NCBI GenBank assembly: GCA_964612745.1
Contig: CAZTCH010000005.1
Coordinates: 5,448 to 69,447, forward strand
DNA: 64,000 nt
Direction: 5' to 3'
Source: an uncultured Candidatus Saccharibacteria bacterium
GTDB taxonomy: Bacteria; Patescibacteriota; Doudnabacteria; UBA920
The position numbers and the translations under genes were made by a program. The notes under the pieces were generated by a model. It was not told where the DNA came from, ran no database searches, and saw only the letters and a list, made by a program, of their open reading frames with translations. Below, one piece after another: positions 5,639 through 62,467 of the stretch (positions are counted from its first letter, which is position 1; each line of letters starts with the position of its first letter).

Positions 5639-6877
5639 ATGAGTATTTCCACCCTTCATGTCGTCATTGGCCCTACAGCCAGTGGAAAAAGTGAATACGC
5701 CGTCACCCTCGCAAGCCAACTGAACGGTGAAATTATTTCGGCAGACTCCCGCCAAGTCTACCGCGGGCTTGATATTGGCAGCGGCAAGGTGGAAGGAGCA
5801 TGGAAGCCAGTACCGAGTAACGAGTTGCGAGTAACGAGAAAGCGGGAAGATGCAACCCCTCAAAACCAATCTAACCTTACATCGAAAAAGAAAACCCTAT
5901 CTAATTTGTCATTGCACAGGCAAGCGCCCTCTAATTTGTCATTGCAGAGGCAAGCTTTCTCTAATTTGTCATTGCGAGGAAGCTTTGTGACGAAGCAATC
6001 TACAGAACCACCCAGTCAAAAGTCGTCACGTCTTAATGTCTTCACGTCAGAAGAAAATTGGAAATTAAAAATTGAAAATTCTCTATACGTTTACAAAAAC
6101 ATTCCACACCACTGCATAGATTTTGTTGACCCCAACTACCAGTACACGGTTGCAGATTTCAAGCGCGACGCAGAACAAGCCATTGCAGACATTGTCGCTC
6201 GCGGAAAAACCCCAATTCTTTGTGGCGGCACTGGTCAATACATAGACGCGATAGTGTTTTCCCAAACACTCCCAGAAGCAAAACCAAATCCTAAGCTCCG
6301 CAAAGAGCTAGAAACTAAATCCATCGAAGAATTATTTGCACTCCTACAAAGCCAAGATCCAGAGCGTGCAGCAAACATTGACCCACATAACCCGCGCAGA
6401 CTCATCCGTGCACTAGAAATTATTCACGAGACAGGCAAGCCGGTACCACCATCAGCAAAGGGTAACCCTTTTGCTGCAAAAGGGTTACCCTTTGTGCCAG
6501 TAATACATTACCTGAACCCACCAAGAGCAGAACTGTACGCAAAAATAGAAACACGACTTCGCGAGCGCGTAGTACAAGGCATGCTCGAAGAAGTAGCACA
6601 GCTACACGCGCAAGGCGTTTCGTGGGAACGCATGGAAGACTTCGGACTAGAATACCGCTACACCTCTCGCTTTCTCCAAGCCCAAAGTATTGCCTCCCCT
6701 CCTAGAATAGGAGGGATTGGGGGTGGTAGATCACACCAAGAAAACCAACCAGCTGAAGCTATTTCTCAGTTATTCCTTGATTCAGCTTTTTTCCAAGAGT
6801 TACTCACCCAAATCAAACACTACGCCAAGCGGCAGCAAACATGGTTCAAAAAGTACGAACCGGCAGAAAAAATATAG
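5639..6877 (+). CDS. miaA: tRNA dimethylallyltransferase carrying an in-frame insertion of about 100 aa
   Basis: The N-terminus VVIGPTASGKSEYAV...ADSRQVYRGLDIGSGK and the later IPHHCIDFVDP...ILCGGTGQY are canonical MiaA. An extra segment (roughly residues 65-165) separates them. Confidence 0.85.
   Translation: MSISTLHVVIGPTASGKSEYAVTLASQLNGEIISADSRQVYRGLDIGSGKVEGAWKPVPSNELRVTRKREDATPQNQSNLTSKKKTLSNLSLHRQAPSNLSLQRQAFSNLSLRGSFVTKQSTEPPSQKSSRLNVFTSEENWKLKIENSLYVYKNIPHHCIDFVDPNYQYTVADFKRDAEQAIADIVARGKTPILCGGTGQYIDAIVFSQTLPEAKPNPKLRKELETKSIEELFALLQSQDPERAANIDPHNPRRLIRALEIIHETGKPVPPSAKGNPFAAKGLPFVPVIHYLNPPRAELYAKIETRLRERVVQGMLEEVAQLHAQGVSWERMEDFGLEYRYTSRFLQAQSIASPPRIGGIGGGRSHQENQPAEAISQLFLDSAFFQELLTQIKHYAKRQQTWFKKYEPAEKI
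5900..5986 (+). repeat. Approximately 30-bp tandem repeat, three copies, inside the miaA coding sequence
   Basis: The copies read TCTAATTTGTCATTGCACAGGCAAGCGCCC, TCTAATTTGTCATTGCAGAGGCAAGCTTTC and TCTAATTTGTCATTGCGAGGAAGCTT. They translate to the SNLSLxRQA repeats. Confidence 0.85.
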
Positions 6878-9083: not shown

Positions 9084-9375
9084 ACTTCCTCCTGTGGCAA
9101 AATCGAACAGTATACAAACTTGCTGCACTTCTGTTAACACTGCGTTAACCAGCACAACTGGTACAGTATGCCACACCCCCACAAATTTTCAACCCCCATT
9201 TAGCAGAAAGCACCAAATAACAATTTTCAAATCCTAAACAAGCACCAATATCCAAATGTTAAAAATTCCAAATCTCATTTTTTGTTTAGAACTTTGTCTC
9301 CTATTTTGAATATTGGAACTTATTTGTTATTTGGAGTTTGTGATTTGGAGTTTGCTAAAGTTTGGCGTGAAGACC

Positions 9376-10542
9376 TTAAGACGTGAAGACGTGACGACAC
9401 CGCCTTTCTTGCGTTTCAAAATTCACTTCCACCAACCCAAATTTTAACCCATACCCATTATGCCATTCGTATGTGTCCAGAAACGACCAGTACACATAGC
9501 CACGCACGTCTACCCCTTCGGCTCTGGCTTGCAGTGCCCAATGTACGTGCTCTGCAATAAACCTTTGGCGCATGTCGTCACGAGCATTGGCAATACCATT
9601 TTCGGTAATGTAAATTGGTTTTTTATATTTCCCAATTTGTTTTAACAGATAGTACAGTCCTTTAGGATACGTTCTCCAGCCCATGTCATTTTTGCACGCT
9701 TTCTTAGTAGTTCGCCCGCGTACAGATACGGAGTCAAAGAAGTAGTAATTAAGTCCGATTATGTCTAAATGGTCCAGAATCTTTTCTAAAATATATTCGT
9801 TACCTATGTAACTCAAAGCCCGCACCACGGCTCTATCCAATAGATTACTATAGTACGGTTCGTAGAATACATTATTTTTCACAATGCCAACTTGGGCGCT
9901 CGGAAGACACTTCTTTACCTGCTCGTACATAGAGCGGTGAGAAGCTAAAATATTCCGCAGTACGCGTGGCACTAACAACACATTCTTTTTAAATGGCGGG
10001 TGCAGGCCACGAACATAGCTCATGAGCAGCACCACTTCTGGTTCGTTTATAGTAAAGAATATATCCACCTCAGAACCAAGCAGCTCTGCCACCACCTTCG
10101 CATAGTTACCCAACCACTCTGCTATGCGTGGATTTTCCCAACCACCCTTTGCTGCCACCCATTGTGGCAACGTAAAATGCTGTAACGTCACCATGCGTAC
10201 GAGCCCATGCCGCTTCATGTTTTGCAACATACGTCGGTAGTGCTCTACAGATTCCATATCAAGCCTTCCCTCTTCTGGCTCTATGCGTGACCATTCAATG
10301 GCAATGCGAAATACATCAAGTCCCATGTCTTGTGCCAACGCAAAATCTGTTTCGTATCTGTTGTAAAAATCTGCTGCCACACCCGAAACTGGCAACTTGC
10401 CCTGCTGCTCCGCGTACCACCAGTCACTGTGCACATTGTCCCCTTCTACTTGGTGCCCGCTCACTCCCGCGCCAAACAAAAAGCCTTCGGGTAGGGCACC
10501 CATAAATAGTTTTTCAGAATTTGTATTCGTAACTGTTTTCAT
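9376..10542 (-). CDS. Glycoside hydrolase family 1 beta-glucosidase
   Basis: The GH1 catalytic motifs TINEPEV (acid/base) and YITENGIA (nucleophile) are both present. The likely start is the internal MKTVTNT. Confidence 0.8.
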   Translation of the reverse strand: MKTVTNTNSEKLFMGALPEGFLFGAGVSGHQVEGDNVHSDWWYAEQQGKLPVSGVAADFYNRYETDFALAQDMGLDVFRIAIEWSRIEPEEGRLDMESVEHYRRMLQNMKRHGLVRMVTLQHFTLPQWVAAKGGWENPRIAEWLGNYAKVVAELLGSEVDIFFTINEPEVVLLMSYVRGLHPPFKKNVLLVPRVLRNILASHRSMYEQVKKCLPSAQVGIVKNNVFYEPYYSNLLDRAVVRALSYIGNEYILEKILDHLDIIGLNYYFFDSVSVRGRTTKKACKNDMGWRTYPKGLYYLLKQIGKYKKPIYITENGIANARDDMRQRFIAEHVHWALQARAEGVDVRGYVYWSFLDTYEWHNGYGLKFGLVEVNFETQERRCRHVFTS

Positions 10543-10645: not shown

Positions 10646-12250
10646 CTACGATTGCAATTTCTGCTTTAAAATTTCGTTTATCACGCTTGGATTAGCTTTG
10701 CCTTGCATTTTCTTCATAACCCCACCAACCAGCGCTCCAAATGCCCGCTCGTTACCATTTTTATAATCTTCTGCCGCCTTCGCATTTTCTTCCAACACAG
10801 CGACTATTGCTTCTTCTATTGCTGCCGTATCACTCACCTGTTCGAGTCCCAAGTCTTTCACAAGCTCACTTGGATCCCCGCCAGTTTCGAGCATTTTCTT
10901 GAACACCTGTTTTGCTGCAGCAGAAGAAATAACACCAGAGTCTATCAGCTTGACTAACTCTGCTAAATTTTCTGCTGTCACACGAGAGTCTGCTGGAGCA
11001 CTATGCGCGCTGTTTAGTGCGGCGGAAAAATCCTGCAAACACCAGTTCGCTGCAAGCTTTACTAACTTTTCCTTACTACTGACCGCTTTCTGGCTACTCT
11101 GCTCCGAAAGAATCCATGCGTCCAACTCACTCACAACATCTTCAAAAAAGAATGCCAACTCTTTCCAGTTCAACAAGTTTTCTATATCTGCTTCTGGTAA
11201 AGCGTATTCCTCGCTAAACCGCAGCCGTTTTGCGTTTGGCAACTCCGGAAGCGACCGACGAATTTCCTCTACGTACGCTGCAGTAAACTGAAGTGGAGGC
11301 AAATCTGGCTCTGGCAAATACCGGTAATCATTCGCCTCTTCTTTGCTTCGCTGCTCCACTGTCTGGTTCAATTTTTCGTTCCAACCCATGGTCACCTGCT
11401 TGGGAGTTTCACCACGGAGACGCATTTCCGACTGGCGCGCAATTTCGTAGGTAATCGCCTGCTCTACAAATTTAAATGAGTTAATGTTCTTTACTTCACA
11501 TTTATATGGCGGCAACCCTTGTTCGCCTGGCAAGCGCACCGAAATACTTGGTTCGCAACGCATGCTCCCTTTTTCCATATCTGCATCGCTTGCGCCTACA
11601 TAGCGCGCAATACGCTGGAGCTCTTCCAAGTATTTCCGAGCTTCTTCTGCAGATTCAATAACTGGGTGGGTCACAATTTCTAAGAGCGGTGTACCCGCAC
11701 GGTTGTAGTCAACCAAGCTGTAGGAAAGACCTTCGGGATGCATATTCTTTCCTGCGTCCTCTTCCAAATGAGCCCGTTGAATAAGCACCCGTTTCGTGCG
11801 AGTACGAGGTTTCGAAACCCCACTAGCATCGTTCGTAGCGCCAGCGAATTTGCCCGCCGAAGCTTCTAGCGAAGGCTGGGCTGTTTGCTCGCTATCAGTT
11901 ACTTGAATTTCGATAAAGCCTTCTTTAGCAATTGGATGGTCCAACTGTGAAATCTGGTACCCTTTTGGTAAGTCAGGGTAAAAATAGTGTTTGCGATCGA
12001 ACTGACTCCATTCATCTATAGAACAGTTCAGTGCCAACCCCATTTTGACGGCAAGCCGAATTGCCTCTTCATTTGCCACAGGCAAAGACCCTGGCTGCGC
12101 AGTCACCACTTCATCGACATTCACATTCGGCTGCTCCATATCTAACCTGTTGGGAGCACTACTAAACATCTTCGACTTCGTTTTCAGTTGAATGTGAACC
12201 TCAAGACCAATAACGGGTTTTAGTAAATCAGACATAGTTCTAATTGCCAC
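10646..12250 (-). CDS. gatB: Asp/Glu-tRNA(Asn/Gln) amidotransferase subunit B, with an approximately 30-aa insertion
   Basis: VIGLEVHIQLKT...FDRKHYFYPDLPKGYQISQ...IQRAHLEEDAGK is canonical GatB. There is extra sequence between IEIQV and RVLIQRAHLEEDAGK. Confidence 0.9.
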   Translation of the reverse strand: MAIRTMSDLLKPVIGLEVHIQLKTKSKMFSSAPNRLDMEQPNVNVDEVVTAQPGSLPVANEEAIRLAVKMGLALNCSIDEWSQFDRKHYFYPDLPKGYQISQLDHPIAKEGFIEIQVTDSEQTAQPSLEASAGKFAGATNDASGVSKPRTRTKRVLIQRAHLEEDAGKNMHPEGLSYSLVDYNRAGTPLLEIVTHPVIESAEEARKYLEELQRIARYVGASDADMEKGSMRCEPSISVRLPGEQGLPPYKCEVKNINSFKFVEQAITYEIARQSEMRLRGETPKQVTMGWNEKLNQTVEQRSKEEANDYRYLPEPDLPPLQFTAAYVEEIRRSLPELPNAKRLRFSEEYALPEADIENLLNWKELAFFFEDVVSELDAWILSEQSSQKAVSSKEKLVKLAANWCLQDFSAALNSAHSAPADSRVTAENLAELVKLIDSGVISSAAAKQVFKKMLETGGDPSELVKDLGLEQVSDTAAIEEAIVAVLEENAKAAEDYKNGNERAFGALVGGVMKKMQGKANPSVINEILKQKLQS

Positions 12251-12270
12251 TTAAGTTCCAAAAAACAATA

Positions 12271-12310
12271 TACAAATCTCAAATAAATTCCAAACTACAA
12301 ATCACAAATA
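12271..12310 (+). repeat. Left inverted repeat flanking the four-helix-bundle gene
   Basis: CAAATCTCAAATAAATTCCAAACTACAAATCACAAATAA. Its reverse-complement partner lies at 12685..12726. Confidence 0.7.
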
Positions 12311-12311
12311 A

Positions 12312-12683
12312 TTACTTGTTCACAATAGCAGAAAAAATCTTTTTCAATTCACCAGCTTCTTGCAGCAACCGTACGCCTTCAACTTTATCTACGGTTTCGT
12401 TAATTTCTAAGAGCAAACGTATCCAATACTCTGACTCTTTTGCTTCTTTTCTGCAGATTTTTACTCGCATCACAAAATCCTTTTTACTCAATGACTCATT
12501 AGCTTCAATATAATTAGCACCCACAGAACCAGACGAGCGAACTAACTGCTTGACGTCCTCTAAAGCACTAATCGTTCTTGGCAGAGACCGCACAAACTCT
12601 CGAATATCACGAGCAAAAATAAATGTTCTCTCCTCTAAATCATAGACCTTATCGACCTTATCGTTTTGGCCATTTTGAGTCAT
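12312..12683 (-). CDS. Four-helix-bundle protein (family formerly called 23S rRNA intervening-sequence protein)
   Basis: The 123-aa size and the family-typical segment SSGSVGANYIEANESLSKKDF (S-x-x-AN-I/Y-x-E) support this call. Confidence 0.65.
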   Translation of the reverse strand: MTQNGQNDKVDKVYDLEERTFIFARDIREFVRSLPRTISALEDVKQLVRSSGSVGANYIEANESLSKKDFVMRVKICRKEAKESEYWIRLLLEINETVDKVEGVRLLQEAGELKKIFSAIVNK

Positions 12684-12684
12684 T

Positions 12685-12726
12685 GGATTTTGGAATTTAT
12701 TTGTTATTTGTGATTTGAGATTTGTT
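12685..12726 (+). repeat. Right inverted repeat flanking the four-helix-bundle gene
   Basis: GGATTTTGGAATTTATTTGTTATTTGTGATTTGAGATTTG. Its reverse complement, CAAATCTCAAATCACAAATAACAAATAAATTCCAAAATCC, matches the left repeat. Confidence 0.7.
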
Positions 12727-12731
12727 TTTTA

Positions 12732-14213
12732 CTACCTTGGTAGTTTCTTGTGCCACTCAGTCACGCTCTGATACGCCAAACCAACATCAAATAACTTTTG
12801 CTCTCCCCACTGCGGTCCAATAAGCTGTAAACCAACTGGCATACCATCTGCACTTGGTTGGTTACCTTCGAGTGGCTTTGCAAAACCGCACGGCACCGAC
12901 AACGCAGGCAGCCCCGCAAGAGAGGAAGGTATGTTCAACTGATCCGCAATGTACCCAAACAAAGGATCGTCTGCCGCCTTACCAAGTGTCACTGCGACCG
13001 TTGGGCTGGAAGGTGCTGCAATCACGTCGACGTGCTTAAATGCCTCTGCAAATTCATTTACAATCAAGCGTCGTACTTTTTGCGCTCGCTTGTAGTAGGC
13101 ATCGTAGTACCCTGCAGACAGCACGTAGGTGCCAGTCATAATGCGGCGCTTGGCTTCGTCGCCAAAACCTTCCGCGCGGGATTTTTCATATACTTCTAGC
13201 AAATTTTTTGCCTCGCTCGACACATGACCATAGCGAATACCGTCGTACCGAGATAGGTTCGACGCAATTTCAGCTGGCGCTACAATTGCATAGACCAGTG
13301 AACCATATCGTGTGTTAGGCAAATCAATTTCTACTAATTCTGCACCCAACTTTTCGAGCTCCTTGGTTGCTGCCAACACCCGCTCTTTCACTTCTTCTTG
13401 GAGACCTTCAGGGAAATACTGCTTGGGAATACCAATACGGAGACCAGACAGAGAGGTTGTAGGGGTTAGGTTGTAGGTTGTAGTAACAGACCCTGTAGTA
13501 GAGTCTTTCGGGTCATGACCAGATATTACATTTGCTATTTGCACCAAGTCGGCAACAGAATGCGCGTGCGCACCAGGACTATCGAGACTGCTCGCCATAG
13601 CAATAACCCCATAGCGACTGACTCGTCCATATGTCGGCTTCCAACCAGACACACCACAGAGCGAAGACGGCTGGCGAATGCTTCCGCCAGTTTCGGTACC
13701 AAGTGTCCACGGCGCCATGCCTGCAGCCACAGCAGCAGCGCTTCCACCAGAAGACCCACCAGGAATACGTGAAGTATCCCATGGGTTCTTTGTAGGACCA
13801 TATGCAGATGTCTCTGTAGAAGAGCCGTGTGCAAACTGGTCCAAGTTAGTCTTACCAATCAGTACTGCGTGCTGCTCTTTTAACTTTGCTATAACAGTAC
13901 TATCGTATGGTGGAATGTAGCTATCTAAAATTTTGGAAGATGCAGTGGTTCGAATGCCTGCAGTACAAAATAAATCTTTTGCTGCAAAAGGTATTCCACA
14001 GAGGGGTGGATTTTGGCCACTCGCAGCCATGTAGTCATCCGCAGCACGGGCTTGCGCCAAAGCTTCTTCGCGCGAAATAGTGACAAATGCATTTAGTTCT
14101 GCATTCAGTTTTTCTGCACGTGCCAAAAAATATTCGGTTAACTCTACCGAACTTACTTGCTTGGTGTCTAATAATTCTCGCAACTCATGGATTGTCTTCT
14201 GTTCAAAATTCAT
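12732..14213 (-). CDS. gatA: Glutamyl-tRNA(Gln) amidotransferase subunit A (amidase signature)
   Basis: The amidase signature GGSSGGSAAAVAAG is present. The likely start is the internal MNFEQKTIHELREL. Confidence 0.9.
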   Translation of the reverse strand: MNFEQKTIHELRELLDTKQVSSVELTEYFLARAEKLNAELNAFVTISREEALAQARAADDYMAASGQNPPLCGIPFAAKDLFCTAGIRTTASSKILDSYIPPYDSTVIAKLKEQHAVLIGKTNLDQFAHGSSTETSAYGPTKNPWDTSRIPGGSSGGSAAAVAAGMAPWTLGTETGGSIRQPSSLCGVSGWKPTYGRVSRYGVIAMASSLDSPGAHAHSVADLVQIANVISGHDPKDSTTGSVTTTYNLTPTTSLSGLRIGIPKQYFPEGLQEEVKERVLAATKELEKLGAELVEIDLPNTRYGSLVYAIVAPAEIASNLSRYDGIRYGHVSSEAKNLLEVYEKSRAEGFGDEAKRRIMTGTYVLSAGYYDAYYKRAQKVRRLIVNEFAEAFKHVDVIAAPSSPTVAVTLGKAADDPLFGYIADQLNIPSSLAGLPALSVPCGFAKPLEGNQPSADGMPVGLQLIGPQWGEQKLFDVGLAYQSVTEWHKKLPR

Positions 14214-14287
14214 AACAGTATATAGTGCGCAGTGAACAGTGGAGAGAAATACAGGCATTGCACTGTTGGCTGTCCACTTTCCACTTC

Positions 14288-14569
14288 TTACAATATTGCT
14301 TTCACTTTATAAAAACCGTCTTTCATTTCTGGTGCTTGCGCGAGCAGAGCTTCGCGACTCGCAGACTCGCGCGCGACGTCTGGTCGCTGGGCATTTACCA
14401 GACCAGTCACCTGCGTGATTTCTTCTACACCCTCAACGTCAATCTGGTTTAACTCAGCAACGTAATCGAGCACTGTAGATAAATCTTTTTGGAACTTCAC
14501 AACCTCTTCTGGACTCAGTGAAATCCGAGCCAAATGAGCTATTTTTACTACTTCTTCTTGGGTTAACAT
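14288..14569 (-). CDS. gatC: Glutamyl-tRNA(Gln) amidotransferase subunit C
   Basis: MLTQEEVVKIAHLARISLSPEEVVKFQKDLSTVLDYV is typical of GatC. The gene order is C-A-B. Confidence 0.85.
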   Translation of the reverse strand: MLTQEEVVKIAHLARISLSPEEVVKFQKDLSTVLDYVAELNQIDVEGVEEITQVTGLVNAQRPDVARESASREALLAQAPEMKDGFYKVKAIL

Positions 14570-14619
14570 AGAGCTAGTATACAAAAAAAGGGCGCCCACT
14601 ACAAGGAGGCTATAATGCA

Positions 14620-15075
14620 GTAACGAGTAGCTAGTTGCTAGTTACGAGAAAGAAATAAGTCGTCACGTCTTAAAGTCTTAACGGCTTCACACCAGAAAAA
14701 CAGTAGAGTTAGATGGGCACCATCTGACACCATGCTCGTAGTTATGGTTTTGAGGGTACATCAACACAAGTAAATATAGAACTTACATGTCAGATGGTGC
14801 CCATCTAACGACAGAAAACTAGAAACTCAAAAGTCAAAACGCAAAACTTCAGGTCAAAACTGTAAACTTTAAATTCTGACCAGTTTTTAGTTTGCAGTTG
14901 AAGCTCCAGTCCGCCAACTGACGGATTTGAACTTTGTTATTTGTTTTTTAAAAAGCCGGAGCACCTGCTCCGGCTTTAAACTATTCTCTATTCTCCCCGC
15001 ACCTTGCGGAGCCCCGATGCGGCATCGGGGCTACTCTCTTCTCTTTCTCGTAACTAGCAACTAGCTACTCGTTAC
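14620..15075. mobile_element. 456-bp non-autonomous TIR-bounded repeat unit with perfect 33-bp terminal inverted repeats
   Basis: GTAACGAGTAGCTAGTTGCTAGTTACGAGAAAG at 14620-14652 is the exact reverse complement of 15043-15075. A MITE-like unit is nested inside. Confidence 0.7.
14709..14808. mobile_element. Approximately 100-bp MITE-like element with 21-bp TIRs (TTAGATGGGCACCATCTGACA)
   Basis: TIRs lie at 14709-14729 and 14788-14808. A second full copy is at 48892..48990. Confidence 0.7.
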
Positions 15076-15095
15076 TTAATCCGCCTACCGGCGGA

Positions 15096-28798: not shown

Positions 28799-29347
28799 AT
28801 GTGGGTATTTTTGATTATTTTGGCAGTAATAGTTATTGCTGCTGTTGGTTTGTACAATTCACTCATTCGCTCTCGCAACCGCGTGGACGAAGCATGGAGT
28901 GACATCGAAGTTCAGCTCAAGCGCCGCTATGACCTTATCCCAAACTTAGTAGAAACCGTGAAAGGTTTTGCTAAGCAAGAATCCAGTGTACTCGAAAACG
29001 TGACCAAAGCTCGCACCATGGCAATGAACGCTGGCACCTTAGAAGAAAAATTGAAAGATGAAAACATGCTTTCTGGTGCACTCAAGTCTTTGTTTGCAGT
29101 AAGCGAAAGCTACCCAGACTTGAAGAGCAACCAAAACTTCTTGCAAATGCAAGGCGACCTCCGCGAAACAGAAGACAAGATTCAAGCTTCCAGACGCTTT
29201 TACAACGGCACCGTCCGTGACTTCAACACAAAGCTCCAAGTCTTCCCTACTAACCTATTTGCTTCCATCCTTGGCTTTACAGCACGCACCTTCTTCGATA
29301 TAGACGAAAATGGGGTTGAGGGACAGAATGTCGCGGTAAAATTCTAA
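28799..29347 (+). CDS. lemA: LemA family protein
   Basis: An N-terminal TM is followed by a LemA-family signature region (ESSVLENVTKARTMAMNAGTLEEKLKDENMLSGALKSLFAVSESYPDLKSNQNFLQ...RRFYNGTVRDFNTKLQVFP). Confidence 0.8.
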   Translation: MWVFLIILAVIVIAAVGLYNSLIRSRNRVDEAWSDIEVQLKRRYDLIPNLVETVKGFAKQESSVLENVTKARTMAMNAGTLEEKLKDENMLSGALKSLFAVSESYPDLKSNQNFLQMQGDLRETEDKIQASRRFYNGTVRDFNTKLQVFPTNLFASILGFTARTFFDIDENGVEGQNVAVKF

Positions 29348-29392
29348 AATAGCACAGATACACAGATAAAACCGATTACTCAGATACCTACT

Positions 29393-29761
29393 ATGGAAAT
29401 TCCACCAGAAGAATTTACTTATAAGGTTATACGAGCGGTGTACGATGTATACAATGAGCTCGGTTTTGGCTATCAAGAAAAATACTACTACCGAGCATTA
29501 AAGTTAAAATTTACCTCACTAGGCTTTTCAGTAGAAGAGCAATTGCTTACCAGGCTTATGTTTGAAGGCAAAAGCATCGGTCGGTATTATTTAGATTTTC
29601 TACTGAACGGCTGTTTAGTAGTAGAACTAAAAGTAGCAACACAGGTATACCAAAAACATATCAATCAAGTATTGGGCTACCTAAAAGCAAACAATCTAAA
29701 ACTGGGAATCCTTGCAGTATATACTTCCCATAAAGTTATAATTAAACGGGTCATCAATTGA
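29393..29761 (+). CDS. GxxExxY-family protein
   Basis: The 122-aa size and the GxxExxY motif within ELGFGYQEKYYYRAL support this call. Confidence 0.6.
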   Translation: MEIPPEEFTYKVIRAVYDVYNELGFGYQEKYYYRALKLKFTSLGFSVEEQLLTRLMFEGKSIGRYYLDFLLNGCLVVELKVATQVYQKHINQVLGYLKANNLKLGILAVYTSHKVIIKRVIN

Positions 29762-29844
29762 TTCGTGTTATCAGTGTAATCTGTGTATCTGTGGTTATAT
29801 AAAATGCATTTAAATCATGCTCTTTTAGTGGTTCGTGGACAATT

Positions 29845-30744
29845 ATGATTACCTACACACACATATCGCAGAACAAACGTAACTCCGTACTGCTCATCCT
29901 TGGCTTTTTGCTGGTGATTACCGCACTTGGCTATGTGTTTAGCCGTGTCTACGACAATGCAGCAATCCTCTTTGTAGCAGTAGCATTTTCCAGTGTATCG
30001 GCAATCTTTTCCTACTACTTCTCCGACTCCATTACCCTTGCCATGTCCGGCGCCAAACAAGTAGACCGCAAGACTGCGCGCGACCTGTACAACCTTGTGG
30101 AGAACCTCACCATTGCCGCAGGGCTACCTATGCCACGAGTCTTTGTTATAGACGATACTGCCATAAATGCATTTGCGACCGGCAGAGACCCGAAGCACGC
30201 AGTTATTTGTGTAACAACTGGCTGCCTTTCAAGGCTTACCAAAGTAGAGCTGGAAGGCGTGCTTGCCCACGAACTTTCCCATATTGGCAATTACGACATC
30301 CGTTTTATGACGCTCGTAGTTGTTCTGGTTGGTGTGGTAACACTCCTTGCAGATTGGTTTATCCGCATTGGTTTGTGGGGCGGCAGAAAACGAGATGACC
30401 GCGAAGGTGGTGGACAAATATTTGCCATTGTTGGCATTGTACTTGCTATCCTCTCGCCAATCATTGCCACACTTATTCAATTTGCGGTTTCCAGACAACG
30501 CGAATATCTAGCAGATGCTTCCGGTGCGCTACTCACCCGCTACCCCGAAGGGCTCGCCAGCGCGCTTGAAAAAATTGCCGCCGACCAAGAACCGCTCGAA
30601 GCTGCAAACAAAGCAACTGCCCACTTATACATCGCAAACCCGCTCAAAAACCAGCACGATGGTATTGGTTGGTTTTCTGGCATGTTCAACACCCACCCAC
30701 CAGTTACCGAACGCATTAAACGCCTCCGCGAAATGAATCTGTAA
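29845..30744 (+). CDS. htpX: Protease HtpX (M48 zinc metalloprotease)
   Basis: The motif HELSHIGNYD is present, with TM helices and a C-terminal NTHPPVTERIKRL. Confidence 0.85.
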   Translation: MITYTHISQNKRNSVLLILGFLLVITALGYVFSRVYDNAAILFVAVAFSSVSAIFSYYFSDSITLAMSGAKQVDRKTARDLYNLVENLTIAAGLPMPRVFVIDDTAINAFATGRDPKHAVICVTTGCLSRLTKVELEGVLAHELSHIGNYDIRFMTLVVVLVGVVTLLADWFIRIGLWGGRKRDDREGGGQIFAIVGIVLAILSPIIATLIQFAVSRQREYLADASGALLTRYPEGLASALEKIAADQEPLEAANKATAHLYIANPLKNQHDGIGWFSGMFNTHPPVTERIKRLREMNL

Positions 30745-31292: not shown

Positions 31293-31840
31293 ATACCAAT
31301 ACTATACAATAACTAGTTCCTAGTAACTAGTCGCGAGTTGCGAGAAAAACAGAACAGTCGAACGTCTTCATGTCTTAAGGTCTTCACGCCAGATTGTGAG
31401 AAGCACCAAACAATTACAAGTTTAAGTCAAAAATCAAAACTCAAAAGTCAAAACTTCAAATCAAAACTTTAAACTTTAATGCAATTCAGTTTTGAGTTTA
31501 TAGTTGCAGTTTTGCGTTTTGATTTTTGACTTTATAGTTCTTTCTTATGCTGTGCTTGTGATTTGGAATTTCTTCTTGCTACCCCCTAATTCCTAACTCC
31601 TAATTCCCAGCATTTGAAAGCTCTGTCTACTCTCTATTCTCTACCCTCCCTCCTACGCTAAAGCTTCGGCGGACTCCGCTTTTCGAAGTCTCTCTAATTC
31701 TACTATTTCTTCTCACTCTTCTATTTCTTCTTTCCACCCCTTTCTTGACAGTTATCACTCTCGTTGTTAGACTGACAATACATACGTACCCTACCCCAAA
31801 AATATCTGCTGGTACTGTGGCACTATAATAGAAACACCTT
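31293..31840. repeat. Mosaic intergenic repeat locus (modules M2, M1, the AAAACTCAAAAGTCAAAAC periodic block, CCTAATTCCTAACTCC and the GAGAATAGAG block in reverse orientation)
   Basis: It shares modules with 14600-15095, 45348-45780 and 48427-49091. Positions 31628-31740 are the reverse complement of 48480-48600. Confidence 0.75.
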
Positions 31841-45347: not shown

Positions 45348-45780
45348 GAGCTAGTTGCGAGTAACTAGTTACGAGTTGCGAGAAAGACAAAGAAGTCGTC
45401 ACGTCTTAAAGTCGAACGGAGAAGGAAAAAGAGAATAGAGAGTAGAGAATAGAGGGTAGTAAGACAGGAATTAGGAGTTAGGCTTTAGTCAGCACCAAAT
45501 CTCAAGCACGAAATAACAAACAAATTCCAATCCGCCAGCTGGCGGACAAAATCCCAAACAAATACACCAACAACTAAAAAATCAAAACTCAAAAGTCGAA
45601 ACTTCAAATCAAAACTGTAAACTGCAATGCAATGCAGTTTTGACTTTATAGCTCTTTTTTATTTCGTTCTTGTAATGTGGGGTTTCCCAATAAATACAGT
45701 AGGAGTTGGAAAAATTAAAAATTGAAAATTGAAAATTGAAAATTTATCCTTCCTATTCTCTATTCTCTACTCTCTACCCT
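45348..45780. repeat. Mosaic intergenic repeat locus between recG and radA
   Basis: The modules are M2 (45350-45390), M1 (45393-45420), GAGAATAGAGAGTAGAG (45425-45462) with its inverted partner at 45751-45785, GGAATTAGGAGTTAGG, CCAATCCGCCAGCTGGCGGAC, the AAAACTCAAAAGTCGAAAC block and GAAAATTGAAAATTGAAAATT. Confidence 0.75.
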
Positions 45781-47130
45781 CTACTTCCCCTTTTCAAAAA
45801 ACTGTGCGAGTTCGGAAATAAATTTAACACCAATGAGTCCAGCAATCTTCTTTTCTTTGGCAGGCGCAGAGACAATCTTCTCAAAGCCCAACTTGGTCGC
45901 CTCTTTTACTCTTTTTTCGGGCATCTGCACACCACGCACTTCTCCTGCCAATCCAATTTCGCCAAATGCAAGCAAGTGTGCAGGCAACGGCACATTGTAG
46001 AAACTAGATAATATCGCCAGTACTACAGGCAAATCTGCTGCCCGCTCGGTCAAGTTAAACCCGCCAGCCACGTTTACATACACATCTTGTGCGCTTAGTT
46101 TTACTCCGAGTCGTTTTTCCACAATAGCGAGTAATAACTGCAATCGGTTAGAATCAAACCCCGAAGCTGCACGTTTCGGGTAGCCAAACGCAGTCGGGTT
46201 TGTGAGCGCCTGCACTTCCAGCAGTAACACTTTTTGTCCTTCTAAGATTGCAGTTACACACGCCCCTGGAACATGCTCAGTTTTGTGTTCCAGAAACAGC
46301 GCAGCCGGATTCTTTACTTCGGCAAGGCCAGATTCGGACATGTCGAACACCCCCACTTCACCAGTGCTCCCAAAACGGTTTTTAATACAGCGCAAGAGCC
46401 GAAGCGCGGTAAACCGCTCTCCTTCCAAATACAACACGGTGTCTACCATATGCTCCAACGTCTTTGGTCCTGCCAGCATCCCTTCTTTGGTCACATGGCC
46501 AATCAGTATAAGCGTAATATGGAGCGACTTTGCCAAACGCATAAACGCATTAGTCGCATATGCTACCTGACTCACTCCACCCACAACACCATTTACTTCG
46601 GCGCTTACAATGGTCTGGATAGAGTCAATAACCGCGACTACGGGGCGCATATGTTCTAGTGTCGCCAAGATAACCTCAAGACTTGTTTCTGCTAACACAC
46701 CTAAGTCGCCGGAAGAATGCATCCGTCTACTGCGCAGCTGAATCTGTTGCGCAGACTCTTCTCCAGAAACATAAAGTACCTGTTTGCCCGCTTCTTGCAG
46801 CGTGAGCGCTGTTTGCAGGGCCAATGTAGACTTACCCACCCCAGGGTCTCCCCCAACCAACACAAGCGCCCCAGGGACCAGTCCACCGCCAAGCACTGCA
46901 TCGAACTCCCCCATGCCAGTAGAAAGCCTCTGCGCGGACACCGTTGTCACTGCCGCCAAATATTCCACCTTCCCACTGGGAAGAGCCCCACCCGCACCTT
47001 TACGAGCAGTGACTGTCCGTTGCTCTGCAAACGTATTCCACTCATTGCACTCTGGACACTTCCCCTGCCACCGAGAGGTAGTAAAACTACAGTTACCACA
47101 AACATACTGTGTGTTAGATTTTAAAGCCAT
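45781..47130 (-). CDS. radA: DNA repair protein RadA/Sms
   Basis: An N-terminal zinc ribbon (CGNC...CPEC), the Walker A GDPGVGKST, KNRFG and a Lon-like C-terminal domain are present. Confidence 0.9.
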   Translation of the reverse strand: MALKSNTQYVCGNCSFTTSRWQGKCPECNEWNTFAEQRTVTARKGAGGALPSGKVEYLAAVTTVSAQRLSTGMGEFDAVLGGGLVPGALVLVGGDPGVGKSTLALQTALTLQEAGKQVLYVSGEESAQQIQLRSRRMHSSGDLGVLAETSLEVILATLEHMRPVVAVIDSIQTIVSAEVNGVVGGVSQVAYATNAFMRLAKSLHITLILIGHVTKEGMLAGPKTLEHMVDTVLYLEGERFTALRLLRCIKNRFGSTGEVGVFDMSESGLAEVKNPAALFLEHKTEHVPGACVTAILEGQKVLLLEVQALTNPTAFGYPKRAASGFDSNRLQLLLAIVEKRLGVKLSAQDVYVNVAGGFNLTERAADLPVVLAILSSFYNVPLPAHLLAFGEIGLAGEVRGVQMPEKRVKEATKLGFEKIVSAPAKEKKIAGLIGVKFISELAQFFEKGK

Positions 47131-48426: not shown

Positions 48427-49091
48427 TTATTTTTCGCTAGCCTACAATACATTTAGTATAGCATGGGAGCAATGAGGAGGATAGAAGAAATAGAAGAGTG
48501 AGAAGAATTAGAAGAATTAGAAGAATTAGAAGAATTAGAGAGGAATTTTGAAAGCGGAGCCCGCCGAAGCTTTAGCGTAGGAGGGAGGGTAGAGAATAGA
48601 GAGAATGTAGATTGCTAAGTGCTAAGTGCTAAGTGCTAAGGGCTATGGGCTAAGAAAGAGTGTAATTTTCAATTTTTAATTTTTCCTACTTGTTACTGCT
48701 TTTTAAAAATTCCAAATCACAAGCACGAAATAACAAATAAATTCCAATCCGCCAGCCGGCGGACGAAAATCCCAAACAAATACATTTTTAACTCAAAAGT
48801 CAAAACTGAGAGGTCAAAACTTCAAATCAAAACTGTAAACTGCAATGCAATTCAGTTTTGCGTTTATAGTTGCAGTTTTGCGTTCCTGTCGTTAGATGGG
48901 CACCATCTGACACAGTGCTCGCAATTTTGGTTTGAGGGTGTATCGACAGAAGTAAATATAAATCTTGTATGTCAGATGGTGCCCATCTAACTCTCCCGTT
49001 TTTCTGGCGTGAAGACCTTAAGACACGAAGACATGACGACTCATTATTCTTTCGTTTGACGTGAAGACATGAAGACCTTCGACTTCTTCCC
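48427..49091. repeat. Mosaic intergenic repeat locus (largest copy) including a MITE-like unit
   Basis: It contains (AGAAGAATT)n, the GAGAATAGAG block, (GTGCTAA)4, CCAATCCGCCAGCCGGCGGAC, the AAAACTGAGAGGTCAAAAC block, the MITE at 48892-48990 and M1 copies at 49005-49080. Confidence 0.75.
48892..48990. mobile_element. MITE-like element, second full copy (TIR TTAGATGGGCACCATCTGACA)
   Basis: The TIRs are identical to the 14709..14808 copy. The internal sequence is about 80% similar by eye. Confidence 0.7.
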
Positions 49092-60226: not shown

Positions 60227-62467
60227 CTACTGACCAAACTGTTTGCTTGTCGTCAAGCTCCAGTTACCAGCCCCGCCAATAGCAGAGTTAGAAATTGTTT
60301 TAATCTTTGCTTCCACAATACCGGTAACTACAGGACAGCTATTCTTGTTTGCAGAACATGCAAGCCAATCAAGCTTCTTCCAAGAGTCGTCTGCACCAGA
60401 ATCACTCAAGCGGTACCAGACTTCAAACTCGCCAGTCTTGAGCCCTGCCGCCATCGCTGCGGTTGGGCTAATTTTGGCTAGTTGCCTTCCAGTCGAGTCA
60501 GTTCCAGCGCTGGTAATACAAGGCATGGGAATTAACACCGAAACACTTTCTCGAGCGGTGAGGTCATCGGTCGTTGCCACATATTCACCTTGTGCAGTCC
60601 GAACCGAGAGCACGTCACCCTTCTTTAGAGTAAATGTTGTCCCAGATACTCTACGACCATTGATGTATATAGTTGCCCCTGCACTGTTTCGAGTATCTAC
60701 CGCTGCTAGTATTGTCCCGTTAGACTGCACATTCACCCCAATAATAGGATCAGTCGACCCAACAGAACCACCAGCATCACACTGAGCCAAGTAGCCACCT
60801 AAACCACGAACATCTCTGGTTGGAGTAGGAGTTGCTTGCCCAACAGGAGTAGTAGATGCTGCCGGAGTTGGAGTAATCAGTGGTGTACCGCCACCAACAC
60901 CCGCACCAGTCCCACCACACACCCACAGACCACTTGCACCAGTACCCGTACCACCAATACTTGTTCCAGGCGTTAGCGTAGCCCTACCAGAACAGCAGCG
61001 ACTTCCTGAGCCACCATAGCGGTTTACCGTACGATATGTGTACCCATCTGCCTCACATTGTGAAATCAAAGTTGTTCCTGGAGGCCTACATGCTTCTTGG
61101 CCACCAGCTACCAATTTCTTAGTATTCGTTGGGCAAGGTGCACAGTTGGGTGAAACACTCGTGCGAGATGAACTACCTATATTCACATATTCATCTGGGC
61201 ACAAAGAAATAAAAGTTCGAGTTGGGGTCGGTGTAGGTGTTGGAGTTACCAAAGGCACCGTCCCTGGAGCGCCACACCGTGCTGGCAAGCCTCGTTCGTC
61301 CACACACTTTTGATCAGTTGGAGTTGGAGAAGCAGTTGGTGTTGGGGTAAATGTCCCACCAGGGCCACCACCACACACCCAGAGACCACTTGCACCAGTT
61401 CCTGTACCACCAATACTGCTCCCCGAAATCAAAGTAGCACGTCCTGCACAGCAGCGACTTCCAGAGCCACCATAACGGTTAACCGTACGATATGTGTACC
61501 CGTCTGCTTCACATGAAAGGGTTAATGTCGTTTCAGGAGGGCGACACGCTTCTTGCCCGCCAGCTGTCATTTTCTTCGTACCAAGTGGGCACCGCACACA
61601 GTTCGGAGAAACGCTCGTGCGAGATGAGCTACCTATATTCACATATTCATCTGGGCACAAAGAGCCAGACGTTGTTGGGGTTGGCGTTGATCGTACAGTA
61701 GGAGTAGGAGTCGGGGTTGGAGTTACCAATGGCACCGTCCCTGGAGCGCCACACCGTGCTGGTAACCCACGTTCATCAACGCATTTTTGATCAGTTGGAG
61801 TTGGCGAGCTAGAAGGGGTTGCAGTTGGAGTAAACGTCCCACCGGCGCCACCACCACACACCCAGAGACCACTTGCACCTGTGCCTGTACCACCAACACT
61901 GCTCCCAGGAATCAAAGTGGCACTACCTGCACAGCAGCGACTTCCAGTGCCGCCAAATCTATTTACTGTTCTATATGTATACCCATCTGGCTCACAAGAC
62001 AAGGTAAGTGGCGTCTTCGAAGGAAGACACGCCTCTTGCCCACCAGCTGTCATTTTCTCAGTGTTCGTCGGACAAGGTGCACAGTTAGGAGAAACGCTCG
62101 TGCGAGAAGAGCTGCCAATATTTACCTGACCATCTGGACACAAAGAACCAGCCGCACCGCCACGTATTGGCAATTCAGAAGCCCCACTATCAGATCGAGG
62201 CGGTGCCGAAGTGCCCAAATTCACCTCAGTCGGAGTAGGTGTCGACATAGTACTGCCATTAAACACACGCCGTAAAGTCGAGAGTAAATCGGCACGAGCA
62301 ACACCTACCGAAAAAACCTTGCTTGGTTTTACGATATGCCCTGTGAATCCTGCCATAAAAGCACACACAAGTACACCTACTAGTGCGTAGCGCTTCCACC
62401 CAAGACTGCTAACACGCGTGCTCGCTTGTTTTAAGCGATGCATTTGAGAATTTAAAAAATGTACCAT
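60227..62467 (-). CDS. Cys-rich surface protein built from three ~152-aa tandem repeats plus a C-terminal beta domain
   Basis: An N-terminal TM is followed by repeats LCPD(G/E)xVNIGSSSRTSVSPNC..CP..T.KM.AGGQEAC...YTYRTVNR.GG.GSRCC.G.ATL..G.S.GGTGTGASGLWVCGG separated by PTPTPT linkers. Confidence 0.6.
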   Translation of the reverse strand: MVHFLNSQMHRLKQASTRVSSLGWKRYALVGVLVCAFMAGFTGHIVKPSKVFSVGVARADLLSTLRRVFNGSTMSTPTPTEVNLGTSAPPRSDSGASELPIRGGAAGSLCPDGQVNIGSSSRTSVSPNCAPCPTNTEKMTAGGQEACLPSKTPLTLSCEPDGYTYRTVNRFGGTGSRCCAGSATLIPGSSVGGTGTGASGLWVCGGGAGGTFTPTATPSSSPTPTDQKCVDERGLPARCGAPGTVPLVTPTPTPTPTVRSTPTPTTSGSLCPDEYVNIGSSSRTSVSPNCVRCPLGTKKMTAGGQEACRPPETTLTLSCEADGYTYRTVNRYGGSGSRCCAGRATLISGSSIGGTGTGASGLWVCGGGPGGTFTPTPTASPTPTDQKCVDERGLPARCGAPGTVPLVTPTPTPTPTRTFISLCPDEYVNIGSSSRTSVSPNCAPCPTNTKKLVAGGQEACRPPGTTLISQCEADGYTYRTVNRYGGSGSRCCSGRATLTPGTSIGGTGTGASGLWVCGGTGAGVGGGTPLITPTPAASTTPVGQATPTPTRDVRGLGGYLAQCDAGGSVGSTDPIIGVNVQSNGTILAAVDTRNSAGATIYINGRRVSGTTFTLKKGDVLSVRTAQGEYVATTDDLTARESVSVLIPMPCITSAGTDSTGRQLAKISPTAAMAAGLKTGEFEVWYRLSDSGADDSWKKLDWLACSANKNSCPVVTGIVEAKIKTISNSAIGGAGNWSLTTSKQFGQ
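60830..62160. repeat. 456-bp tandem DNA repeat, about three copies, inside the 60227..62467 gene
   Basis: Near-identical plus-strand shadow ORFs at 61038, 61494 and 61881 show the 456-bp period. The protein repeats are more than 85% identical by eye. Confidence 0.8.

Follow-up and report, generated by a model that had tools for sequence, protein, structure and literature searches.

Why does a gene for a small helical protein lie between two genes of the GatCAB amidotransferase? The question is raised by a 64-kb window (the whole stretch of DNA analysed here, 64,000 nucleotides of contig CAZTCH010000005.1), whose minus strand carries, in this order, gatC, gatA, an open reading frame (ORF) for a 123-amino-acid four-helix-bundle (4HB) protein, and gatB. 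GatC, GatA and GatB were confirmed by profile, all on the minus strand, so that the interruption of the operon by the 4HB ORF, as stated in the preliminary description of this DNA, stands. The closest GatB relatives are found in metagenome-assembled genomes labelled Saccharibacteria, Doudnabacteria or Patescibacteria, and the host is a member of Patescibacteria. The gatA-gatB spacer is wholly occupied by a unit of about 480 nt, the 4HB cassette, which is very probably a discrete element with heptamer arms cognate to its gene. The 4HB family itself is already known; what we regard as new is a probable element of the intervening sequence (IVS) type outside rRNA, with arms made of heptamer arrays.

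The cassette and its heptamer arms

The arms of the cassette are not ordinary inverted repeats. Both are arrays of five to six heptanucleotide units, AAATNNC upstream of the ORF and its complement downstream (Table 1), a structure that goes beyond the preliminary description, as do the additional copies without ORF presented below. Inverted repeats of about 40 bp had been given there at 12271-12310 and 12685-12726, and these intervals fall within the arms now placed at 12252-12311 and 12684-12731. An inverted-repeat search returned 42-nt arms (12259-12300 and 12683-12724) that are 76% complementary; as terminal inverted repeats the arms are 34-48 nt long and imperfect. Tandem Repeats Finder detected a period of 7 with 4.9 copies at 12697-12730 in the 5' arm, and the pairing portion of the 3' arm is 12254-12295. 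At the junction read from the DNA, the gatA stop codon TAG (12732-12734) immediately adjoins the 5' arm, in which no Shine-Dalgarno-like sequence is visible before the ATG of the ORF. The gatB ATG, at 12235, lies 16 nt past the 3' arm. A scan of 12100-12900 found no promoter-like or terminator-like sites. The window contains no rRNA, its Rfam matches being three tRNAs only, and neither here nor at 20 related loci did an arm or hairpin match any Rfam family.

When the flanks of the window ORF were paired with RNAduplex, 33 base pairs formed at -27.8 kcal/mol, compared with -15.3 +/- 3.4 kcal/mol for shuffled flanks, and none of 500 shuffles was as stable. The resulting interrupted 33-bp stem encloses the ORF, as the stem of an IVS does, and the long-range pairing is also present in the minimum-free-energy fold of the 508-nt RNA. 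The motif CAAATCACAAATAA, allowing up to two mismatches, occurs 9 times in the window (1.2 expected), and the expected number of strict heptamer arrays after shuffling of the window is 0. When the orthologous cassettes of the window, L162 and L005 (L numbers denote comparison loci) were compared for compensatory changes, no clean double substitutions were seen, the arms differing chiefly by gain, loss and drift of units.

The ORF matches PF05635 with 52 bits (cut-off 33.8, E=9e-14) and TIGR02436 with 72.6 bits (cut-off 24). The family motif GxxRxxxSxxxNxxE (PMC3936711) is present as R49-x3-S53-x3-N57-x2-E60, which contains the S-x-x-A-N-x-x-E signature noted earlier, and Q46, S53 and E83 are invariant in alignments. 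The AlphaFold2 monomer model (predicted local distance difference test, pLDDT, 89) has helices at residues 16-32, 38-62, 67-94 and 100-122. Its best Foldseek matches are BT_0352 (2RLD) and XCC0516 (2GSC), with template-modelling (TM) scores of 0.75-0.89, followed by Avd in the ribonucleoprotein of a diversity-generating retroelement (DGR; 8UB7_E, TM 0.69/0.76) and free Avd (4DWL, 0.68/0.75), both at 13-14% sequence identity. A sequence search of the PDB found 2RLD, and 2GSC only with a profile; each of these entries has 5 chains. PF05635 is very large (at least 8000 proteins at E<=0.001), with homologues at 70% identity in different phyla; structures of members have been solved, yet no function is known other than that of DGR Avd. 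Among 31 homologue pairs of the subfamily the median ratio of nonsynonymous to synonymous substitution rates (dN/dS) was 0.09, and the differences between the window gene and that of L177/L178 are mostly synonymous, which shows that the ORF encodes a functional protein. A 9-nt tandem duplication at 12645-12663 (GATAAGGTC twice, giving DKV-DKV) lies in the poorly conserved N-terminal part of the ORF and is absent from L177/L178.

Turnover of the spacer and cassettes in other genomes

The discrete cassette between gatA and gatB that had been proposed is supported by relatives without it: in L003, L008, L009, L018 and L019, all close relatives, the spacer is empty and 13-70 nt long. Other relatives carry an orthologous (type-A) 4HB gene, with 69% identity in L005, 71% in L162 and 96% at the amino acid level in L177/L178 (about 98% of aligned bases). 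The spacer holds a type-B 4HB gene, only 32% identical to that of the window, in L006 and L017, a 40-codon type-B remnant in L004, and unrelated small ORFs in L007 and L011-L016. In a neighbour-joining tree of GatA plus GatB, the empty, type-A and type-B states are interleaved in one clade, with L017 (type B) sister to L005 (type A) and L003 (empty) beside the window; the gatA-gatB site has therefore undergone gain, loss and replacement. Agreement of the insert-free spacer with precise cassette boundaries, which had been expected, is reached only coarsely. The exact termini are unreadable, since alleles differ in the final codons of gatA and in the initial codons of gatB. Between L177/L178 and the window, the outermost 5'-arm heptamer and the last two gatA codons differ. 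In the 4HB gene of L005, TAG replaces the CAG codon of the invariant Gln46 (5697-5699), and this gene is either a pseudogene or carries a sequencing error.

Four ORFs occupy the gatA-gatB gap of L013 (3680-6000), separated by chimeric copies of a gatB-5'/gatA-3' junction, e.g. MELKNYKPVIGLD-CTSS-QWGDEKVFNVGYAYQQVTDWHKQQRA. These junctions directly document an exchange of cassettes at this site through homologous recombination in the conserved flanks, and the arrangement of the copies indicates circularised allele fragments integrated by homologous recombination.

The spacer in the clade of L007, L011, L012, L013, L014 and L016 is a hotspot of unrelated small ORFs (membrane and acidic proteins). 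A 103-aa ORF in the gap of L015 (1530-1990) is GIY-YIG nuclease-like by sequence motif only. It is flanked by an inverted repeat (GCCGTCATCCTGAG...CGAAGGATC / GATCCTTCG...CAGGATGACGC) and preceded by xxxGTAG heptamers; with it, this site would have three kinds of small ORF flanked by inverted repeats. The empty junction of L003 (5945-5985) reads GAATTTGGAATAACAAATTACGATTT-ATG and has a 6-bp mini-palindrome (AATTTG...CAAATT) of arm-like motifs, which could be a deletion footprint or chance.

The flanks of 4HB ORFs were inspected at 80 metagenome loci that encode homologues 57-72% identical, 64-65 unique loci entering the statistics. Nearly all 80 have a 5' array of the AAATCCG/AAGCACG, AAATCCT or AAATCAC type, ending ...AAACAAAT(T/C)CAA-ATG, and a reverse-complement array downstream. 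The 5' and 3' flanks of the same locus pair at a mean of -27.8 kcal/mol, compared with -21.3 kcal/mol when the 3' flank of another locus was used and -17.5 kcal/mol after shuffling (n=64; p=2e-5 and 6e-11, respectively). Self-identity at lag 7 was 0.50 in the 5' flank and 0.47 in the 3' flank versus about 0.27 in coding sequence, and the register of the 5' array relative to the ATG is fixed across 65 homologous loci. When 4HB genes were compared with 113 neighbouring genes from the same loci, a period-7 signal was seen on both sides of 58% of the former and 7% of the latter, and flank pairing was more stable around 4HB genes (-27.5 versus -19.7 kcal/mol, p=4e-8). The 336 kb of loci contain 75 strict arrays, of which 41 are no more than 110 nt away from a 4HB ORF. 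One genome has two cassettes 3.5 kb apart (metK|glmS and ald|cofD), each with its own arm flavour, which indicates that the arms evolve as pairs with their own gene and not under a genome-wide factor. A second 4HB gene seemingly present or absent in L166 relative to L163 proved to be an artefact of gene calling and a run of N; the DNA is identical.

A tblastn search against plasmids returned 26 records, mainly from cyanobacteria. For 12 plasmid-borne homologues from cultured strains, 7 was the best of the periods 5-9 in 23 of 24 flanks, and the printed flanks were read as inverted arrays in about 10 of the 12, some weakly. The units (5' / 3') are AAGTCGG / CCGACTT in Nostoc punctiforme and N. 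commune, AAATTCA / TTTTGAA in Aulosira and N. flagelliforme, AAAAGTA / CTTTTNA in Nostoc TCL26-01 and Anabaena cylindrica, GATGAAG / TTCATCN in Chlorohelix, TTTTAGA / TCTAAAA in Gloeocapsa, and AATCCCC and AATCGTA / CGATTTA in Planktothrix. In Xanthomonas campestris, a 4HB gene of the XCC0516 type (PDB 2GSC family) separates accB from accC. The array before the gene reads GGGAATC GGGAGTG GAGAATC GGGAATC, and the array after it, which abuts the ATG of accC, reads CATTCCC CATTCTC GACTCCC TATTCCC; these are the only such arrays in the 5.3-kb locus (7 matches versus 0.42 expected). The architecture of the 4HB cassette is general across phyla: the heptamer sequence varies with lineage and the period is constant at 7.

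Neighbouring genes are mostly co-oriented with the 4HB gene (47 of 56 upstream, 41 of 49 downstream), and in no case are both opposed at once. The upstream stop codon usually lies 41-50 nt before the 4HB ATG, i.e. at the first heptamer. The host gene pairs are conserved ones: they are gatA|gatB, accB|accC, metK|glmS, ald|cofD and dockerin|cohesin; further hosts are a resistance-nodulation-division (RND) adaptor and permease, a helicase and methylase, and cas2|cas1, and a 4HB gene between cmr3 and cmr2 has been described (PMC3936711). The plasmid cassettes of cyanobacteria and Chlorohelix (L171 1117-2873, L184, L185, L188, L172) are found inside or beside defence and mobile-element operons (cas2|cas1; beside cas1; DUF1156|Swt1-HEPN; a helicase beside an N6-methylase), in agreement with 4HB genes reported earlier within cas loci (PMC3936711). 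Such locations probably reflect operon insertion rather than function. PADLOC and PHROGs gave no match for the 4HB protein, so that a known role in defence or in phages finds no backing there.

A search for other copies of the termini, with or without the ORF, had been suggested, and copies without the ORF were found elsewhere in the window. The 64 kb contain four type-B ORF-less copies (about 110 nt, 72-89% mutual identity) and three additional type-A arm copies (Table 1). The hairpin at 9183-9360 folds at -48.8 kcal/mol (z=-3.9), and its 5'-type arm, CAAATAACAAATAAGTTCCAATATTCAA, is nearly identical to the 12684-12731 arm. The related sequence reported at 9320-9360 is real, 9306-9357 having 79% identity to 12683-12734 over 52 nt. 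Three type-B copies (14805, 31420 and 45570) could be aligned with the L017 and L004 cassettes of type B. They retain the 5' array, about 11 codons from the beginning of the ORF (with ACG for ATG in one copy) and the 3' flank, and one deletion junction is common to all three, which suggests that they were copied as ORF-less units. We consider the gene-less arm copies best read as ORF-less derivatives of cassettes. The objection that the arms are simply a ubiquitous mosaic repeat is half true: gene-less arm copies exist at 9.3, 45.5 and 48.7 kb, but the arms are absent from most intergenic sites and are cognate to 4HB genes. On family-wide data, the mosaic repeat of the window is itself largely composed of cassette arms. 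Solo or nested hairpins of a similar kind occur in other genomes (L156/L158, L150 and L130).

A proposed IVS-type hairpin cassette and its rivals

We lean towards reading the feature as a selfish hairpin cassette of the IVS type, lodged in the intercistronic spacer of gatCAB. Its distribution makes it likely that the cassette is or was mobile in some way. The cassette would have no promoter or terminator of its own and would be transcribed passively with the host operon. In the RNA, pairing of the two arrays would produce a long stem whose loop contains the ORF, an arrangement known from the 23S rRNA IVS with the same gene family. By analogy, the host RNase III may cut this stem, and we judge RNase III-type processing of the cassette RNA to be evenly poised between true and false. 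A cut without ligation would be harmless between cistrons and in rRNA surface helices, a tolerance that would explain where such elements persist. The 4HB protein, as a relative of the pentameric RNA-binding Avd, would bind the arrays and serve the expression or spread of the element; heptamer binding is a tentative proposal, and the rough agreement of about 4-6 heptamers with five subunits is no more than suggestive. Homologous-recombination exchange through conserved flanking genes certainly contributes to the insertion.

The Coxiella IVS is 428-444 nt long and has a 28-bp terminal stem, an RNase III cut in mid-stem and a 4HB ORF in the loop (PMC4990558). Like the 23S rRNA IVSs with a PF05635 ORF (Coxiella burnetii IVS/S23p and Leptospira IVS), the window cassette combines a size of about 430-480 nt with complementary terminal arms and the same protein family in the loop, and it has the sporadic distribution that suggests horizontal transfer. 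Unlike them, it lies between protein-coding cistrons and not in helix 25/45 of 23S rRNA; its heptamer-array arms may be a further difference. Purifying selection acts on the window-type ORF, while that of Coxiella has been reported as decaying and unexpressed.

PF05635 resembles Avd (PMC10053308), a positively charged pentamer that binds a defined DGR RNA element and is required by the reverse transcriptase (10.1101/2023.10.23.563531; PMC10053308). The 4HB protein shares the four-helix-bundle fold with Avd (PDB 4DWL, 8UB7; TM 0.68-0.76), but differs from it in the low sequence identity given above and in having gatA and gatB, and no reverse transcriptase gene, as immediate neighbours. Self-blast found no repeat resembling a template/variable repeat (TR/VR) pair near the 4HB gene (the remaining window was not screened for reverse transcriptase). 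Heptamer arrays flank the 4HB gene and are undescribed for DGRs.

Several observations weigh against an IVS-type cassette that acts through its RNA. Arm pairing at the metagenome loci is equally stable in sense and antisense (-27.8 versus -27.8 kcal/mol; 31 versus 33 loci), so there is no G-U asymmetry to indicate that selection acts on the RNA and not on the DNA. The entire 508-nt RNA folds only modestly better than shuffles (z=-2.2), and the arrays of the Bernardetia homologue are direct, not inverted. Obligatory read-through does not fit certain cassettes that run antisense to the adjacent genes (Nostoc cas2|cas1, Aulosira). The protein of the Coxiella IVS was reported as not made in vivo (PMC4990558). 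With respect to mobility, the 4HB protein is a 120-aa helical bundle without a recognisable catalytic motif for DNA mobility, no direct repeat was found outside the arms in about 60 loci, and the one cassette with a clean empty counterpart is not a precise insertion, 510 nt (L183 306-815) replacing 33 nt (L190 406-438).

This cassette, on plasmid 2 of Aulosira laxa, and its six homologous empty sites of about 90% identity (on plasmids of Tolypothrix, Calothrix and Nostoc carneum, and on Aulosira plasmid 1) are the sole clean filled/empty pair found. The 510-nt insert consists of the arrays (AAATTCA)x4 and (TTTTGAA)x5, a 60-nt spacer and the ORF, and is antisense to both host genes. Among the replaced 33 nt are the stop codon of one host gene and eight codons from the beginning of the following gene, whose start is now an ATG directly beside the array. 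No target-site duplication is present at this pair. Such a replacement speaks against cut-and-paste by a classical DDE mechanism. Recombination or an insertion mediated by repair, with co-conversion, would fit, as would a later remodelling of the site. The multi-copy cassettes of Nostoc flagelliforme sit in larger segmental duplications and are not usable to map termini.

The alternative that survives best, although we consider it unlikely, is a DNA-level transposon resembling a miniature inverted-repeat transposable element (MITE). In that case the heptamer arrays would be terminal inverted repeats for a transposase or recombinase encoded elsewhere, the 4HB protein a passenger or DNA-binding accessory, and RNA pairing incidental. 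Like MITEs, the cassette has terminal inverted repeats and multiple dispersed similar copies in one genome. The strand symmetry of arm complementarity, the antisense cassettes, and the nesting of elements and dispersal of ORF-less copies with one common deletion junction all agree with it, as do the many type-A arms that end TAAAT...ATTTA and are compatible with a TA target. This palindromic TA, however, is indistinguishable from arm sequence, and beyond it the target-site duplications looked for in about 60 loci, as the preliminary description had suggested, were not found. The 33-nt replacement in the filled/empty pair does not favour a transposon either, and no transposase is consistently nearby. 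The arms vary widely between lineages, and even within one genome, so that many matching trans-acting enzymes would be needed, and a passenger is not expected to be one constant cargo under strong purifying selection.

Correia/NEMIS (Neisseria miniature insertion sequence) elements and enterobacterial repetitive intergenic consensus (ERIC) elements are short inverted-repeat elements that lie in operon intergenic DNA in many copies and give hairpin RNAs cleaved by RNase III. They have terminal repeats of unique sequence, defined target duplications (TA for Correia) and no ORF. The window cassette differs from them in its tandem heptamer arms, in the lack of a duplication at the loci searched, and in a full-length form that encodes a conserved protein. 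Like integron gene cassettes, it has a promoterless small ORF, an imperfect palindromic sequence resembling a recombination site, and turnover at a fixed site. Unlike integron cassettes, its complementary halves flank the ORF instead of forming a downstream attC, no integrase or attI is evident (intI was not searched genome-wide), and its sites are scattered among housekeeping genes and not collected in one array.

A host-beneficial regulatory gene is less probable still. The arrays would then be operators or translation-control sites of an autoregulated 4HB gene that spreads by ordinary horizontal transfer and homologous recombination only. Such a gene would account for the strong purifying selection, the fixed register of the 5' array to the ATG and the allele exchange via conserved flanks visible in the chimeric junctions of L013; heptamer repeats directly before start codons are also described elsewhere, for TAACTGA (PMC4679880). 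It would not account for insertion between unrelated housekeeping genes in many phyla, for close relatives that have or lack the gene at one site or carry another subfamily there, for the pseudogenised (L005) and internally deleted (L004) copies, for several ORF-less copies at unrelated loci, or for 70%-identical homologues in different phyla.

It is very improbable that the 4HB protein serves the GatCAB amidotransferase as an accessory and that its operon position reflects this function. Co-orientation, tight packing in gatCAB and the position kept in L005, L162 and L177 would suit it, but comparative data contradict it: close relatives have no 4HB gene or unrelated ORFs there, homologues lie between accB|accC, metK|glmS, cas genes and others, and L005 has a stop codon at the invariant Gln46. 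Finally, although the arms are compositionally complementary (A/C-rich versus T/G-rich) and still pair at about -15 to -17 kcal/mol when shuffled, a chance product of A/T-rich low-complexity intergenic DNA is refuted by the shuffling controls for pairing and for strict arrays given above, and by recurrence of the pattern with a different heptamer in GC-rich Xanthomonas.

The proposed cassette bears on heptanucleotide repeats described from other bacteria. Rehm et al. 2015 (PMC4692102) give GGGAATC at about 186 sites per Xanthomonas genome. Arrays of four units are favoured, as are positions between aligned ORFs and up to 50 bp from stop/start codons; 70-75 convergent pairs occur per genome, and the repeats are interpreted as G-quadruplex motifs. 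Other over-represented heptanucleotides are GGGGA(T/C)T in Nostocales (PMC4692102) and TAACTGA in Beggiatoaceae (PMC4679880). In keyword searches, no mention of a 4HB gene was found in the passages covered of these papers, which read the repeats as G-quadruplex or regulatory motifs. Like these published repeats, which typically have about 4 units and are often in convergent pairs, the window arms are tandem arrays of period 7, intergenic between co-oriented ORFs, near stop/start codons and inverted. Moreover, the Xanthomonas 4HB gene is flanked by exactly GGGAATC arrays, and that of Planktothrix by AATCCCC, the complement of the cyanobacterial GGGGATT named there. Unlike these G-rich repeats, the window unit AAATNNC cannot form G-quadruplexes.

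A full-text keyword search brought up no paper that connects 4HB genes with flanking repeats or heptamer arrays, nor any that connects heptanucleotide repeats with 4HB genes; much subscription literature is outside its reach, and an earlier description is possible. The rule that the locus offers is a 4HB gene packaged between inverted 7-nt arrays where a break in the RNA would be harmless, that is, between cistrons of conserved operons or in rRNA helices. A wider hypothesis, which we put forward as speculative and on the whole doubtful, is that PF05635 proteins bind heptanucleotide arrays sequence-specifically (one heptamer per subunit of the pentamer, RNA or single-stranded DNA) and form with inverted arrays a class of mobile hairpin element not recognised so far. 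Such elements, both full-length and ORF-less, would explain much of the bacterial heptanucleotide excess (GGGAATC in Xanthomonas, GGGGATT in Nostocales, possibly repeats of the STRR (short tandemly repeated repetitive) type), the ORF-bearing and perhaps the ORF-less rRNA IVSs, and the origin of DGR Avd. If the packaging rule holds, rRNA intervening sequences and intergenic elements would be unified, and heptanucleotide repeats so far treated as G-quadruplex or slippage curiosities would have a concrete origin. A nucleic-acid ligand would also be predicted for crystallised orphan proteins (XCC0516 with (GGGAATC)n; BT_0352), and caution would be needed in reading 4HB genes in cas, restriction-modification or metabolic operons as functional partners. 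Cultivable carriers of the cassette are Xanthomonas (accB-4HB-accC) and the Nostoc plasmids.

Other repeats and small ORFs of the window

Table 1. Coordinates of the cassette, its host genes and the gene-less copies in the window.
Feature	Position	Strand	Remarks
gatC	14288-14599	-	First gene of host operon; PF02686 GatC, E=3e-19
gatA	12732-14258	-	PF01425 Amidase, E=3e-147
5' arm	12684-12731	-	Heptamer array TAAAAAAC AAATCTC AAATCAC AAATAAC AAATAAA TTCCAAA ATCCA, ends at ATG
4HB ORF, 123 aa	12312-12683	-	PF05635/TIGR02436
3' arm	12252-12311	-	T/G-rich complementary heptamers TTATTTG TGATTTG TAGTTTG GAATTTA TTTGAGA TTTGTAT ATTGTTTTTT
gatB	10646-12235	-	Downstream host gene; PF02934 and PF02637
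Type-A ORF-less hairpin	9183-9360	-	Between GH1 (glycoside hydrolase family 1) gene and next gene; complete hairpin
Type-A 5'-type arm, no ORF	45483-45562	+	GC-rich palindrome interrupts arm
Type-A 5'-type arm, no ORF	48707-48748	+	AAATTCCAAATCACAAGCACGAAATAACAAATAAATTCCAA
Type-B ORF-less derivative	14817-14903	+	Retains 5' array, about 11 codons of type-B ORF start (ATG -> ACG) and 3' flank; aligned with L017/L004
Type-B ORF-less hairpin, second copy	31406-31572	+	89% identical to 48772-48884 over 113 nt
Type-B ORF-less hairpin, third copy	45554-45686	+	Alignment and self-blast
Type-B ORF-less hairpin, fourth copy	48772-48884	+	Placed by 89% identity to 31406-31518 and by sequence

Several other repeats accompany the gene-less copies. 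A dispersed intergenic repeat with an 8-nt unit (CGTGAAGA / GTCTTCAC, as in GTCGTCACGTCTTAAnGTCTTCACG) is present at 6025-6055, 9363-9398, 14660-14690, 31364-31393 and 49003-49076 and often adjoins heptamer arrays. Embedded among the hairpin elements is a palindromic module of about 100 nt (TTAGATGGGCACCATCTGACA...TGTCAGATGGTGCCCATCTAA), at 14708-14809 and 48891-48991 with 86% identity. GC-rich mini-palindromes, TCCGCCnnnnGGCGGA, interrupt arms near 14910, 15080, 45530 and 48750. The whole intergenic mosaic at 14.6-15.1 kb is enclosed by a perfect 35-nt inverted pair of GTAACGA/GTAGCTA arrays (14619-14653 / 15042-15076). Other period-7 arrays lie at 48613-48654, 45753-45785, 45711-45744 and 5809-5838, with the units TGCTAAG x6, CTACTCT x4.7, AAAATTG x4.9 and AGTAACG x4.3. 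All these period-7 arrays could represent the arms of additional cassette subfamilies.

The window also contains a second small-ORF cassette, at 29353-29793. Its 122-aa ORF (29393-29761, plus strand) belongs to PF13366 (PDDEXK_3, 'GxxExxY') and occupies the gap that separates LemA (28799-29347) from an M48 peptidase (29845-30744). The flanks carry CACAGATA twice and the inverse TATCTGTG three times, with a duplex of -30.8 kcal/mol. Plasmid-borne homologues were found between fabD and fabG (Sphingomonas) or with flanking repeats of the ACACGGAT/ATCCGTGT type. Unrelated to the 4HB cassette, a 483-nt tandem duplication (about 78-81% identity) is located at 60912-62154 within a 746-aa ORF (60227-62467).

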